Counted from the first letter of the stretch, positions 53,785 through 59,102 are shown. The stretch is DNA of 64,000 nt from Escherichia coli (GCF_024298765.1 NZ_CP101210.1); one strand, 5' to 3'. The notes: generated by a model from the sequence alone, not told the origin. Made by a program: numbers and translations.

Positions 53785-54147
53785 TTAAGCAACTTGGTAG
53801 GCGGATAGATAATAGAAATAGGAATGCGCAGGTCTGTCATGTTGCCTAGAACGGTGACAAGCTGTCCGGTGCGAAATCATTCCGGCAGCGACAGGCTCAT
53901 GTGTCAGCCCGACGCCCAGACCGTCAACGAGCATGTGGATCTGCGAGGCGTTATCGTTCGCAGCGATGTTAAAACGAACAATCTGCTCATCTTCTAGAAG
54001 CACAAGTGCTTTAATGACATTAAGGCGGTCTATATGTTGCATTACAGACTTCCTATTGATCTTTACCTGAGGCTGAAGCAACCACGTTAATCCGACTATT
54101 TTTCGATTGCACCATCCACTATCACCATCGATCTTCCCTGAGCACAA
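53785..54147 (-). pseudogene. possible C-terminal fragment of a LysR-type regulator
   Basis: Segment ...VIKALVLLEDEQIVRFNIAANDNASQIHMLVDGLGVGLTHEPVAAGMI... resembles the C-terminal substrate-binding part of LysR regulators. No HTH N-terminus present. Overlaps the 3' end of the ABC ATPase gene. Confidence 0.25.
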
Positions 54148-54863
54148 CGTTCAACTCTCCCGCGTACGCCGTATACCTGCGCAAGGCTCTCTGCATGGAT
54201 CACCGTTTGCGGGTCGCCGCTGTCGATAAGTTTCCCCTCTTTCAGCATGATGACCTGGGCGGCATGCCGCAGTGCGATATTGATATCGTGTAAGACGACC
54301 AGCGTAACCATATTGCGTCTTCGCGTTTCGCGCGATACAACATCCATCACATGGAACTGATAATTGAGATCCAGCGCGCTCAGTGGTTCATCCAGCAATA
54401 ATAATGCGGGGCGGCGAATAAGCGACTGTGCAAGCCCCACCAGCTGCTTCTGACCGCCGGACAGGCTATCGAGGTAGTTCATTGCCAGATGTGCGATGCC
54501 TAGCTCTTCGAGCAGCGCTATAGCCTGCGCCTGATTTTGCCCGGCGCCGGAGGCGCGCTGGGCGACAACCACCGACTCCAGCACCTGTAAATGCACGCCC
54601 TGCGGCAGGGACTGCGGCAGGAACACAACTTTTTCAGCCCGACGAGCAAACGGCAGCGATAAGAGATTCTCTTCATTCAGCCAGGCTTCGCCACTGGCGC
54701 GATTTAGCCCGGCCAGGGCGCGCAGTAGCGTTGATTTACCGCAGCCATTAGGCCCCAGCAGTACAGTGACTTCGCCGCGCGGCAGCGTAGAAATCGACAG
54801 ATGCTCAATAATCCGCCGTTTGCCGTAACCGGCGCACAGCGCATTAATCGTAAGCCCGCTCAT
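54096..54863 (-). CDS. ABC transporter ATP-binding protein (iron-chelate type, FecE/FhuC-like)
   Basis: Walker A GPNGCGKSTLL, ABC signature LSGGQKQ, Walker B LLLDEP. Last gene of a four-gene uptake operon. Confidence 0.85.
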   Translation of the reverse strand: MSGLTINALCAGYGKRRIIEHLSISTLPRGEVTVLLGPNGCGKSTLLRALAGLNRASGEAWLNEENLLSLPFARRAEKVVFLPQSLPQGVHLQVLESVVVAQRASGAGQNQAQAIALLEELGIAHLAMNYLDSLSGGQKQLVGLAQSLIRRPALLLLDEPLSALDLNYQFHVMDVVSRETRRRNMVTLVVLHDINIALRHAAQVIMLKEGKLIDSGDPQTVIHAESLAQVYGVRGRVERCAQGRSMVIVDGAIEK

Positions 54864-55918
54864 GACATACTCCCTCGATGACGCATTACAATGCTCAGAA
54901 AGAACGGAACGCCTACCAGCGAGGTAACAATTCCTACCGGTAAAATGACACCGGGAATGATGTTCTTCGACGCTACCGAGGCCAGCGATAGCACCAGCCC
55001 ACCGATAAGGATGCTTCCGGGCAAATAAAAGCGATGATCTTCTCCCAGCAACAGGCGGGAAATATGCGGTGCAACCAGGCCAATAAAGCCAATTGGCCCC
55101 ACAAACGCAACCGAAAGGGCCGCCAGCAGGCTGATGCGCAGCAGGGAACCCAGGCGCAAACGGCGAACATCAATGCCAAAACTCATCGCCCGCTCTTCGC
55201 CGAGGCGTAGCGCGGTAAGCTGCCAGGCACGACGCAGCGACCAGGGTAAAACAATCGCCATCGCCGCCGCCAGCACCGCCAGTTTCTCCCATGATGCGCG
55301 AGCCAGGCTGCCCATCGTCCAGAACACCAGGCCCTGCAAAGTATCTTCATCGGCGACAAACTGCATAATGGACACCAGCGCATTGAAGGTAAACACCAGC
55401 GCAATCCCAAACAGCACAACGCCCGACGTCGGCACGCGCGTCCAGCGGGTCAGACTATCGAGCAGCAGGGCGGACAGGAGCGCAAAAAGAAAAGCGTTTG
55501 CCGGTATAAACCCGCTTTCGGGAACGCCGGGAATACCGATGCCCAGAACAATCGCCAGCGCTGCGCCAAAGGCCGCCGCCGACGAAACGCCAAGCGTAAA
55601 CGGGCTGGCGAGGGAGTTATTCAGAATAGTTTGCATCTCTGCCCCGGCCAAACCCAGCGCCATTCCTACCAGGAGCGCCATCAGCGCATAGGGCAAACGG
55701 ATGTCCCAAACGATAACCCGCATGCCGTTAGTCGCCCCGGACGGATGCATCAAAGTCTTTATCAGCGAATGTAAAGGGAGCCCTGAGGGGCCGAGGGTGA
55801 AATCGAGCAGCAGCGAAGCAATGATAGCGATAAAAATAACCGCCAGTATTACCAGACGCTGGCGAAAAAGCTGGCGATAGCGGTTCTCGACCGACAGCGT
55901 ACTTTCCAATACAGTCAT
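54860..55918 (-). CDS. ABC transporter permease (FecCD family)
   Basis: 352-aa highly hydrophobic ORF with FecCD/BtuC-like organisation. Overlaps neighbours by 4 bp. Confidence 0.8.
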   Translation of the reverse strand: MTVLESTLSVENRYRQLFRQRLVILAVIFIAIIASLLLDFTLGPSGLPLHSLIKTLMHPSGATNGMRVIVWDIRLPYALMALLVGMALGLAGAEMQTILNNSLASPFTLGVSSAAAFGAALAIVLGIGIPGVPESGFIPANAFLFALLSALLLDSLTRWTRVPTSGVVLFGIALVFTFNALVSIMQFVADEDTLQGLVFWTMGSLARASWEKLAVLAAAMAIVLPWSLRRAWQLTALRLGEERAMSFGIDVRRLRLGSLLRISLLAALSVAFVGPIGFIGLVAPHISRLLLGEDHRFYLPGSILIGGLVLSLASVASKNIIPGVILPVGIVTSLVGVPFFLSIVMRHRGSMS

Positions 55919-56929: not shown

Positions 56930-56936
56930 TTATCCA

Positions 56937-59102
56937 TCAGAAATCGAAGGTGACGGATGCACGCACTTCGCGGCCGCCGCCGATAAACGCACTTGGGGAA
57001 CCGTTATCGCCATCGGTACCCGATGGGAAGATAGAAGCCCAGTAATGTTTATCAAACACGTTGTTTACCACCACGCGGAAAGTGGTTGGGACGTTGCTCA
57101 CTTTCGTGGTGTAACGCGTTCCCAAATCCCATGTGGTATAGCTGCTGGCGTAAGAGGTGTTGGTATCGTTCGCCGCGCGTTTGCCCGTATAATGGACGTT
57201 AGCGCTGTAAACCCATTCCGGTATGGACGGCAAACTGTATTCCGCCAACAGATTGGCCTGCACTTTCGGCACGCCGACAACCTGTTTATTGCTGGTTGAG
57301 GCATTCGCCGTATCTTTCAGTTTCGGGTCGAGGAAGGTCACGCCGCTGTAAATATTCAGCCCCTGCCACACATTCCCGGCAGCGGTTAACTCAAGGCCGT
57401 TGTTAACCTGGTTACCCTGCTCTTTATACACGTTATCCGTATCAAGATAGGCAAACGGACGTTCCAGTCGGAACAGCGCGGCGCCTAGATTCATCTCGCC
57501 GATGTCCGATTTTAGCCCCACTTCATACTGCTTGCTGCGATACGGGTTTAGCGTTTGACCGGCATTTTTTACGCTCTCATCCGTCGGTGCGGTACCGCCC
57601 TGCTCCAGCGAATCGGCATAGCTAACGTAGGCCATTGTGTTAGGGGTAATTTTATACATCAGCGCGGCGTTCGGACTTAAACCATTTTCATCAACCTGGT
57701 TCGTTTGATTACCGTGCTTATCGTAGTTTTTAGTCTGCAGCCAGCTCTGGCTGAGATAGAACATTGCCGACCACTGCGGCGTAAATGTCACCGTATCGCC
57801 GAGCGTAACGCTCTGCTGAGTATTTACGCTGGAGCGGTATCGCGGCCCGCCGGTGCGGATTTTGCCATCGCCCTGCTCATCTATCGCATCCGGGTGATAC
57901 ATATTTGTTGTACCCCAGCTATAGCTGGAACCTGTTCCTTTGGCACTATAAAGCGACCAGACATATCCCGTGGTAGAAAGTGACAGATCGTGGCCGATAG
58001 AGCCGGTATCAATATGACCATTCAGCCCGGCGGTGTTGCTCAGGACGCGAAAACGTCCGGCAGCGGTGGAATCCTTCATCGAACGAGAGATATCGCCCTG
58101 ATTGTTGAGTATTTTACTGGAAACACTACGCATCGCGCGGTCAGCCTGCTGCCAGCCCACGCCAGCGTTCATGGACCAGTCGTCGTTAAAGTAGTGGATC
58201 AGGCGAGTGCTGATGGTATCGGTAGTGAGGTCGTTGCCCGCAGTGCTGAGCGCCAGATTTTTGTCCTTCGGATTCGGCGCAGACGGCAGTTTGACGTTCG
58301 GCCCATAGTTAAAGCTACCGACATAGCCTTTCTGGATAAATTCGTAATGGCTGGCGTCGAGCTGTAGCTGAGTGCCCGGCTGAATATTCCAGTCGAGCGC
58401 AACGGAAACGAGTTTGCGACGCAGCGTGCTGTCATCCACATTGCCTTCCCCTTCCTGATCAAGCAGGTTCACGCGATAGCCAAACCGTTTGTTTTCATCA
58501 AAATGGCCACCCAGATCGGCATGGCCGGTAAACGCACTGCGGCTTTGATAGCCCAGCGTCACTTTACGCAGCGTCTCTTCGGTTGGGCGCTTCGCCACGA
58601 AATTAAACTGCCCTGCTGGGCTCGCCGGGCCGTACAGCGCGCCGGTCAAACTGTTAAGCACATCCATGCGCTCAAGCATTTCCACCGGAAACGCGGTTGT
58701 TGAAACGATATTCAGCCCGTCCAGACGGCTGTTGGCCACCACGCTGCCCTGCATCCCCCGACTTTGCGGACGCCCGACATCCATTCCACCGCGCGCCTGC
58801 ATTTGCGTACTGGGAGAGTATTTCAGCATCTCGCTGACGCTTTGCGCCTGCTGATTTTCAATCATCTCTTTAGTTACAGTGGTGCTGGAATATGGTGTTT
58901 CGATCCAGGATTTCGTTCCCAGCGGGCCGACATCTATATCGTTCGTTTTGAAACCGGCACCGGCGGCAGAATCGGTGGTGTCGGCGGCGGTGTTGCCCGT
59001 GACAATCATTTCATCTTCAGAAGTAGACGAGGCATGAGCATGAAGCGGTATGAAAGACGCTAATGCTGGCAAAAGCGCAGCGAAAGTTATTTGAGTTTTC
59101 AT
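56937..59102 (-). CDS. TonB-dependent outer membrane receptor
   Basis: 721-aa ORF with signal peptide, plug-domain region and C-terminal aromatic residue (ends ...RASVTFDF). Confidence 0.85.
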   Translation of the reverse strand: MKTQITFAALLPALASFIPLHAHASSTSEDEMIVTGNTAADTTDSAAGAGFKTNDIDVGPLGTKSWIETPYSSTTVTKEMIENQQAQSVSEMLKYSPSTQMQARGGMDVGRPQSRGMQGSVVANSRLDGLNIVSTTAFPVEMLERMDVLNSLTGALYGPASPAGQFNFVAKRPTEETLRKVTLGYQSRSAFTGHADLGGHFDENKRFGYRVNLLDQEGEGNVDDSTLRRKLVSVALDWNIQPGTQLQLDASHYEFIQKGYVGSFNYGPNVKLPSAPNPKDKNLALSTAGNDLTTDTISTRLIHYFNDDWSMNAGVGWQQADRAMRSVSSKILNNQGDISRSMKDSTAAGRFRVLSNTAGLNGHIDTGSIGHDLSLSTTGYVWSLYSAKGTGSSYSWGTTNMYHPDAIDEQGDGKIRTGGPRYRSSVNTQQSVTLGDTVTFTPQWSAMFYLSQSWLQTKNYDKHGNQTNQVDENGLSPNAALMYKITPNTMAYVSYADSLEQGGTAPTDESVKNAGQTLNPYRSKQYEVGLKSDIGEMNLGAALFRLERPFAYLDTDNVYKEQGNQVNNGLELTAAGNVWQGLNIYSGVTFLDPKLKDTANASTSNKQVVGVPKVQANLLAEYSLPSIPEWVYSANVHYTGKRAANDTNTSYASSYTTWDLGTRYTTKVSNVPTTFRVVVNNVFDKHYWASIFPSGTDGDNGSPSAFIGGGREVRASVTFDF

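Follow-up and report, generated by a model that had tools for sequence, protein, structure and literature searches.

The 64,000-nucleotide stretch of Escherichia coli DNA analysed here (GCF_024298765.1, NZ_CP101210.1; hereafter, the window) carries on its minus strand a four-gene operon, fbpABCD, which the present study suggests is controlled by the molybdate-binding regulator ModE. The first gene, fbpA (c0294; 56937-59102), specifies a TonB-dependent outer-membrane receptor of 721 residues, recognized from its open reading frame (ORF) and from Pfam and NCBIfam matches, with a signal peptide, a TonB-box-like DEMIVTG segment, Plug and TonB_dep_Rec_b-barrel domains, and a 22-strand barrel. The second, fbpB (c0295; 55937-56929, or from 56926 with the RefSeq start), encodes a class III periplasmic binding protein of 330 or 329 residues (Peripla_BP_2). 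The third, fbpC (c0296; 54860-55918), encodes a single FecCD-type permease of 352 residues (Pfam FecCD, 276 bits), and the fourth, fbpD (c0297; 54096-54863), an ATP-binding cassette (ABC) ATPase of 255 residues (Pfam ABC_tran) whose translation shows the Walker A sequence GPNGCGKST as well as LSGGQ and LLLLDEP. A FecCD permease, an ABC ATPase and a Peripla_BP_2 protein encoded in one operon identify a type II importer of the BtuCD/FecCD class, in which FbpC is expected, by analogy with BtuC, HmuU and MolB, to act as a homodimer. The receptor/binding protein/permease/ATPase architecture had been proposed in an earlier description of the window made from its nucleotides alone (the sequence-only reading), and it is borne out by four intact minus-strand ORFs lying exactly where that reading had placed them, with matching domains. 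Its description of the genes as translationally coupled holds for the permease and ATPase genes, which share a 4-nt overlap (ATGA), the sole true overlap in the operon, and fails for the other junctions: 7 nt separate fbpA from fbpB, and 18 nt, containing GGAGG, separate fbpB from fbpC. The ratio of nonsynonymous to synonymous divergence (dN/dS) relative to Citrobacter koseri is 0.06-0.14 for all four genes, indicating purifying selection.

The same reading had left the specificity of the locus unassigned, yet it has been published as fbpABCD of the uropathogenic E. coli (UPEC) strain CFT073 and annotated as an iron acquisition system; what is added here is a predicted regulation and a favored substrate class. 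Window positions 53500-59800 are 100% identical to CFT073 NC_004431 273315-279615, and the four RefSeq proteins, including FbpA (WP_000856947.1), are identical to c0294-c0297. Because the G+C content (GC) of the operon (0.52-0.58) contrasts with that of its flanks (0.39-0.48), and because its CFT073 counterpart falls inside the pathogenicity island (PAI) PAI-CFT073-aspV (248751-348573), the proposal that the operon resides in an accessory island can be upheld. Within the island it is surrounded by insertion sequence (IS) elements and pseudogenes. A 6.3-kb block comprising the operon, its promoter and ~1 kb downstream (53052-59376) is duplicated between the aspV and cobU islands (blastn, 99.18% over 6332 bp), the second CFT073 copy, c2518-c2515, being located in PAI-cobU (NC_004431 2351412-2357743; L002:29089-35420) and having identical protein accessions. 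The island backbone around both copies is also common to them, with zinc-ribbon proteins, inovirus Gp2, an Hha-like protein, a dynamin-like protein, RdcB and a patatin. A small minus-strand ORF directly downstream of the ATPase gene (53785-54003; hypothetical protein WP_072276226.1) shares in the duplication of the operon; on inspection it looked like the remnant of a LysR C terminus, an assignment that was dropped when no Pfam hit was obtained. Of 5426 complete E. coli genomes, 1631 match the 6.3-kb query and 899 keep at least 80% of it, most at 99% identity or above. The locus is said to have been named by Lloyd and colleagues in 2009, and deletion of both copies reportedly lowered competitive fitness in mouse urinary tract infection (UTI). 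A review catalogues it as the "fbp system" (fbpABCD), under "Fe acquisition," in both PAI-CFT073-aspV and PAI-cobU (PMC7545054). For the receptor genes fbpA1 and fbpA2, no expression was seen in the urine of patients or in vitro, in contrast to Fur-controlled receptors, which were expressed (Hagan et al. 2010, PMC2978726); this null result covered eight clinical isolates, in vivo and in vitro (PMC2978726).

Consistent with that silence, membership of the Fur regulon finds no backing in the promoter sequence. When every 19-mer in the window was scored against the Fur box (GATAATGATAATCATTATC-like), the best match within ~300 bp upstream of fbpA was 12/19. A 13/19 match lies ~400 bp from the fbpA start, a score that occurs 29 times in the window by chance, and an AT-rich palindrome in the promoter reaches 11/19. 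In 14 orthologous upstream regions, no Fur match exceeded 13/19 and none occupied a conserved position. The absence of a convincing Fur box from the region before the receptor gene, recorded in the sequence-only reading, is therefore a true negative, here and in the 14 orthologues. Likewise, Rfam searches at gathering thresholds, which cover cobalamin and molybdenum cofactor (Moco) riboswitches, gave no hit close to the operon, either in the window or at four related loci. Operators of Zur, NikR, TyrR, ArgR, LexA and the LacI family were considered for the palindrome by eye and set aside on spacing or half-site mismatch.

That reading had gone on to call the regulation unclear, a view that no longer stands: a near-consensus predicted ModE operator overlaps the promoter and is kept in every orthologue examined. 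The candidate operator, ATCGTAATATA-AATATT-TACATAACGAT, occupies 28 bp of the minus strand (59112-59139), ends 9 nt before the fbpA ATG, and forms the core of a 38-bp palindrome (59107-59144). Compared with the E. coli ModE consensus, ATCGNTATATA-N6-TATATANCGAT (Rodionov et al. 2004, PMC545781), it agrees at 18 of 20 specified positions. The modA operators read from the genomes of E. coli (gtCGTTATATTGTCGCCTACATAACGtt) and C. koseri (ctCGCTATATTTGCGCCTACATAACGat) score 16/20 and 17/20. Scoring against the consensus covered 530 kb on both strands and gave a background ceiling of 14/20, reached by nine sites, and 24 sites at 16-19/20. All 24 fall in fbpA-type upstream regions, in the C. koseri modA operator, or in a metagenomic homologue (L011; 48% receptor identity, site score 17/20). 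The modA-derived pattern CGNNATAT-N7-TAYATAACG, with up to two mismatches permitted, finds one site in the 64-kb window, where 0.16 would be expected, and exactly one site in each fbp locus, plus modA itself.

The box is preserved well beyond E. coli. Scanning one genome per species yielded 16 Enterobacterales loci from 12 genera (Escherichia, Citrobacter, Pseudocitrobacter, Cedecea, Kluyvera, Pluralibacter, Klebsiella, Intestinirhabdus, Leclercia, Serratia, Brenneria and Enterobacter) with receptor identities of 73-100%, and all 16 have a ModE box a few bases before the start codon. Its form is CGTAATATA-N6-TA(C/T)ATAACG, with the N6 and the flanks variable; the box of Enterobacter sp. EA-1, whose assembly is visibly frameshifted, has a 7-nt spacer. 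An altered form of the half-site, CGTCCGCTA, was conceived as a mutant-box control. In C. koseri and C. freundii, the same four genes lie in the core chromosome between aroG and gpmA (L003:9817-15122 and L005:9829-15089). The gal operon and the modF-modE-acrZ-modABC cluster lie ~5 kb away from the Citrobacter insert, a nearness to the mod genes that may be coincidence. Synonymous divergence (dS) between the E. coli and C. koseri operon genes is saturated, at 1.3-1.5, and in alignments of the E. coli upstream region with those of C. koseri and C. freundii only ~70 bp before the start is conserved, with the palindrome as the most conserved part; a TTTACA in the Citrobacter region is TTTGCC in E. 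coli. Because synonymous sites are saturated and the N6 and flanks vary, conservation of the box reflects constraint and not recency. Four distant relatives (L036, L007, L037 and L010) have as their locus-best ModE-like site an intergenic 13-14/20 match upstream of the receptor operon; three of these four loci are 60-67% GC, and the sites are suggestive only. Taken together, the motif and its conservation make it highly probable that fbpABCD is under ModE control.

A second predicted element accompanies the box. The sequence TGTGATCTGGATCATA (59157-59172, minus strand) resembles a site for the CRP/FNR family, matching 9/10 positions of the CRP half-sites (TGTGA-N6-TCACA) and 8/10 of those of FNR (TTGAT-N4-ATCAA), and its center lies 39 bp upstream of the center of the ModE box. 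Among 15 orthologues, 13 have a site scoring 8-9/10 to FNR at a distance of 39-40 bp from the box; one of these is Brenneria, in which the flanking sequence is otherwise unrelated. Placing the activator site at -41.5, where class II sites usually lie, predicts TAATAT (59130-59135, minus strand) as the -10 hexamer; this hexamer forms the left arm of the ModE box, which would then extend from about -16 to +12. A consensus scanner offered an alternative promoter, CTTACA-18-CATAAT (59184-59155). With either choice of hexamer, we infer that the ModE box sits on or just downstream of the transcription start, and occupancy by ModE should therefore repress.

As to what the system carries, the proteins themselves provide evidence that is suggestive, not decisive. 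The sequence-only reading had proposed a siderophore-, heme- or cobalamin-type system; a type II importer with a receptor is indeed present, but that list omits the molybdenum/tungsten (Mo/W) class that is now favored. The homology search it had suggested for assigning a substrate class was partly informative: solved relatives were found, namely FemA and BauA for the receptor and 4ovk and MolA for the binding protein, whereas named homologues gave no substrate, the 651 relatives of the receptor and 336 of the binding protein bearing generic names only. The closest solved chains to FbpA are FemA (233 bits), BauA (200) and FhuA (95). FbpA scores 288 bits against TIGR01783, the TonB-dependent siderophore receptor subfamily, above the curated cutoff of 223.5, and no NCBIfam equivalog model (FhuA, FoxA, Fiu, BtuB, heme) comes near its cutoff. 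When a profile of the FbpB family was compared with the PDB, the best match was 4ovk (E 9e-42), a Veillonella protein with no ligand assigned, followed by MolA (HI_1472; E 7e-30 over nearly its full length). Foldseek, run with an AlphaFold (AF2) model of FbpB (predicted local distance difference test score, 87.8), ranked 4ovk first, followed by MolA (template modeling score, 0.74), Helicobacter pylori CeuE, 4hn9 and YiuA. FbpC matches HmuU (170 bits), BhuU (168), MolB/HI1471 (142) and BtuC (122), and comparison of the permease and ATPase with the PDB does not discriminate among HmuU, MolB and BtuC.

Gene neighborhoods add to this picture. In Serratia fonticola, a 19/20 ModE box lies 20 bp before the operon encoding a MolA orthologue, and the Haemophilus mol operon, which is located between modD-like and modA-like genes, has a 15/20 ModE-like site. 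FecCD-type importers with MolA-like binding proteins and ModE boxes are thus an established pattern, and the TonB-dependent receptor is the difference here. Wider homologues of the receptor, at 43-51% identity, are encoded in self-contained modules, each together with a binding protein, one permease and an ATPase, and no nonribosomal peptide synthetase or other siderophore biosynthesis genes were seen beside any homologue examined. One distant receptor homologue adjoins genes for xanthine dehydrogenase and XdhC. In three relatives with 47-51% receptor identity, a class I S-adenosylmethionine-dependent methyltransferase gene (Methyltransf_25) stands between the receptor and binding-protein genes (L007:9561-10361, L008:2302-3123 and L036:7737-8534); this gene is absent from the enterobacterial operons.

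Collectively, these data lead us to favor a model in which fbpABCD is a ModE-repressed, TonB-dependent importer of Mo or W species, probably activated by anaerobiosis or cyclic AMP (cAMP), and we regard this model as probable. When molybdate is sufficient, molybdate-bound ModE would occupy the 28-bp operator over the -10 hexamer and transcription start and switch the operon off, as at modABC. As intracellular molybdate drops, ModE would leave and the promoter would fire, aided by a CRP/FNR-family activator at about -41.5. Expression would therefore need Mo starvation together with anaerobiosis or high cAMP. FbpA, energized by TonB-ExbBD, would then carry the Mo (or W) species across the outer membrane, and FbpB would pass it to FbpC2D2 for ATP-driven import. 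That the receptor is gated points to a chelate, or to a bulky or very scarce form, rather than to the free oxyanion. Control by Mo accounts for the absent Fur box, for silence of the operon in iron-limited but Mo-replete urine and media, and for the order-wide conservation of the box. Binding of ModE and its sign, the identity of the acting activator and above all the substrate are nevertheless predictions. For an Mo or W substrate as such, the balance of evidence is only modestly favorable, and we hold it with less confidence than control by ModE because such control does not by itself define the cargo, because the receptor is siderophore-like, and because free molybdate needs no receptor.

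Several observations weigh against this model. FbpA belongs to the siderophore-receptor subfamily, and its nearest solved relatives, FemA (mycobactin) and BauA (acinetobactin), carry iron siderophores. The fold subfamily of FbpB includes CeuE, which binds Ni-(His)2, and YiuA, which binds Fe-catecholate fragments. Identity between FbpB and MolA is only ~23%, and Enterobacterales have true MolA orthologues (~65%) as separate proteins, for which reasons FbpB must be regarded as a paralogous family and not as the MolA orthologue; its invariant motifs, YHS and GMFWWCRE, are not shared with MolA. Free molybdate passes through porins, so that a gated receptor is puzzling unless the substrate is a complex, and ModE also governs genes other than those for Mo transporters. 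The activator site is compatible with either CRP or FNR. Finally, the published mouse fitness phenotype of the fbp deletion is said to have been read as iron-related. A Mo-chelate substrate would, we speculate, reconcile a siderophore-like receptor with control by ModE.

The alternative that best withstands these data accepts control by ModE but assigns the importer another cargo, such as an iron chelate, nickel or another metal complex for which demand is tied to Mo status; iron, for instance, might be wanted for Moco synthesis, which depends on Fe-S, or for back-up enzymes that work without Mo. The nearness of FbpA to FemA and BauA, its place in TIGR01783, and the kinship of FbpB with YiuA and CeuE all fit such a cargo. 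The placement of the box over the -10 hexamer and transcription start, however, predicts repression when Mo is sufficient, which is the logic of Mo scavenging and is that of modABC. Moreover, enterobacteria, as far as is generally known, lack Mo-free alternative enzymes that would need the extra iron, and MolA, which binds molybdate/tungstate, is the sole biochemically characterized member of the subfamily with ModE-boxed orthologues. A precedent does exist in Methanosarcina acetivorans, where operons with an Fe ABC transporter annotation have ModE boxes in front of them (PMC12327845). On balance we consider a different cargo unlikely.

Less likely still is a conventional iron or xenosiderophore system under weak, noncanonical or indirect Fur control, the palindrome then being incidental or a site for some other protein. 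Such a system would agree with the annotation of Fbp as Fe acquisition, with the subfamily of the receptor, with the 11/19 resemblance of the palindrome to a Fur box, and with the double deletion mutant reportedly having been outcompeted in mouse UTI. It is difficult to square with the lack of any Fur match above background in this promoter or in the 14 orthologous regions, and of any at a conserved position, and with the pattern of conservation, which falls exactly on the ModE half-sites and leaves the center variable. Nor were siderophore biosynthesis genes found next to any of the homologues examined, and the receptor genes were silent in iron-limited urine while Fur-regulated receptors were expressed (PMC2978726). 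That same silence in eight clinical isolates (PMC2978726), along with the replacement of the Citrobacter TTTACA by TTTGCC and the setting among IS elements and pseudogenes, might instead mark the operon as a recently acquired, intact but unused island passenger whose promoter died after transfer from a Citrobacter-like donor, yet the low dN/dS of all four genes, the two identical copies kept by CFT073, the retention of at least 80% of the block by 899 of 5426 genomes, the intact predicted operator and activator site, and the fact that repression by ModE itself predicts no expression in Mo-replete media make this very improbable.

Comparison with known transporters places the favored model, a ModE-repressed importer of Mo or W species, in context. 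MolBC-A of Haemophilus influenzae (HI1470/HI1471/HI1472), a low-affinity molybdate/tungstate type II importer, likewise combines a single FecCD permease with an ATPase and a class III binding protein, and operons of MolA orthologues are also preceded by ModE boxes; the mol operons examined, however, are without a TonB-dependent receptor, and the pocket motifs differ from those of FbpB. ModABC resembles the fbp system in its operator, which has the same half-sites, 24/28-bp spacing and position just before the first start codon, overlapping the -10 hexamer, but is a type I importer with a class II binding protein and no outer-membrane component. FemA of Pseudomonas aeruginosa and BauA of Acinetobacter match FbpA over the whole plug and barrel, albeit at ~30% identity, and both are iron-regulated and tied to siderophore pathways; FbpA is also without the N-terminal signaling extension of FemA, the alignment beginning at FemA residue 102. 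The Yersinia YiuABC-YiuR system pairs a TonB-dependent receptor with a single-permease type II importer and, in YiuA, has a member of the FbpB fold subfamily, but it is distant by sequence (E 3e-10) and binds iron-catecholate fragments. The fbpABCD locus of CFT073 is the present locus; the literature treats it as an iron system, whereas the promoter evidence obtained here points to the ModE regulon. Studholme and Pau reportedly scanned genomes for ModE boxes in 2003. In the literature accessible to us, we found neither this locus nor any TonB-dependent receptor of enterobacteria linked to ModE or molybdenum, although an earlier in silico listing (Studholme & Pau 2003, RegPrecise) is possible. 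A 2020 review of Mo uptake in pathogens names only ModABC, sulfate transporters and MolBCA (PMC7759655).

As the sequence-only reading had recognized, copies of a hairpin-forming repeat are present on both flanks of the operon. The downstream copy is an imperfect direct repeat (53600-53655, plus strand) detected by blastn-short, and the upstream copy (59362-59417, plus strand) is 77% identical to it over 56 nt. Partial copies occur at 60409-60431 and 63621-63644, and the repeat is GC-rich, with the core GTCCGCTnnGAGCGAGGAGCGGA. It is inside the upstream copy, at 59376, that aspV/cobU homology ends, and the adjoining 4.2-kb segment (59377-63620), which the cobU island lacks, has a repeat copy at either end, suggesting that the repeats mark recombination junctions. 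Inside that segment, ARAGORN called a tRNA-Gly(GCC) on the minus strand (59824-59898) within a hypothetical ORF of 269 residues (59585-60394); the Rfam tRNA model fell below its gathering score at this position, and the call may represent a fragment from an old integration site or a false positive. A tRNA-Thr(CGT) at 10301-10376, which we take from its anticodon to be thrW, has low-GC island DNA on one side; core-like GC extends from ~10.5 kb to the start of a second island at ~32 kb. Three Rfam matches to naRNA4, a nucleoid-associated RNA derived from repetitive extragenic palindromic elements, lie on the minus strand of the core-genome part (24254-24430 and 27185-27262). Outside the fbp block the window is not colinear with CFT073, and the best matches to 30000-54000 are avian and human strains of extraintestinal pathogenic E. 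coli. This part includes, on the minus strand (34796-44554), a repeat protein of 1610 residues, annotated in matching genomes as an immunoglobulin-like or beta-strand repeat protein, together with a type I secretion system (HlyD-type adaptor, permease/ATPase and TolC family protein); we presume that it resembles the tos operon region of PAI-aspV.

Moco enzymes, such as the nitrate, dimethyl sulfoxide/trimethylamine N-oxide and formate oxidoreductases, drive the growth of Enterobacteriaceae in the inflamed gut and in infected tissue, and to our knowledge ModABC is the only well-known line of Mo supply. We tentatively propose, at somewhat less than even odds, that fbp and its chromosomal orthologues are the first TonB-dependent Mo/W acquisition system described in Enterobacterales, importing a Mo complex that ModABC cannot use when the cell is starved of Mo and is anaerobic or high in cAMP, and that the fitness contribution in UTI reflects competition for Mo. 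The complex would be a "molybdophore" or a Mo species derived from the host or its microbiota. If this is true, then Fur-titration and iron-limitation assays would probably be negative without proving the system inactive, the silence of the locus under iron limitation would be explained, and the locus would leave the class of UPEC iron systems in virulence-gene screens. Moreover, molybdenum would join the metals contested at the outer membrane, by way of a second, TonB-dependent route that is island-borne in about one-sixth of complete E. coli genomes and part of the core genome in Citrobacter, Kluyvera, Serratia and other genera.

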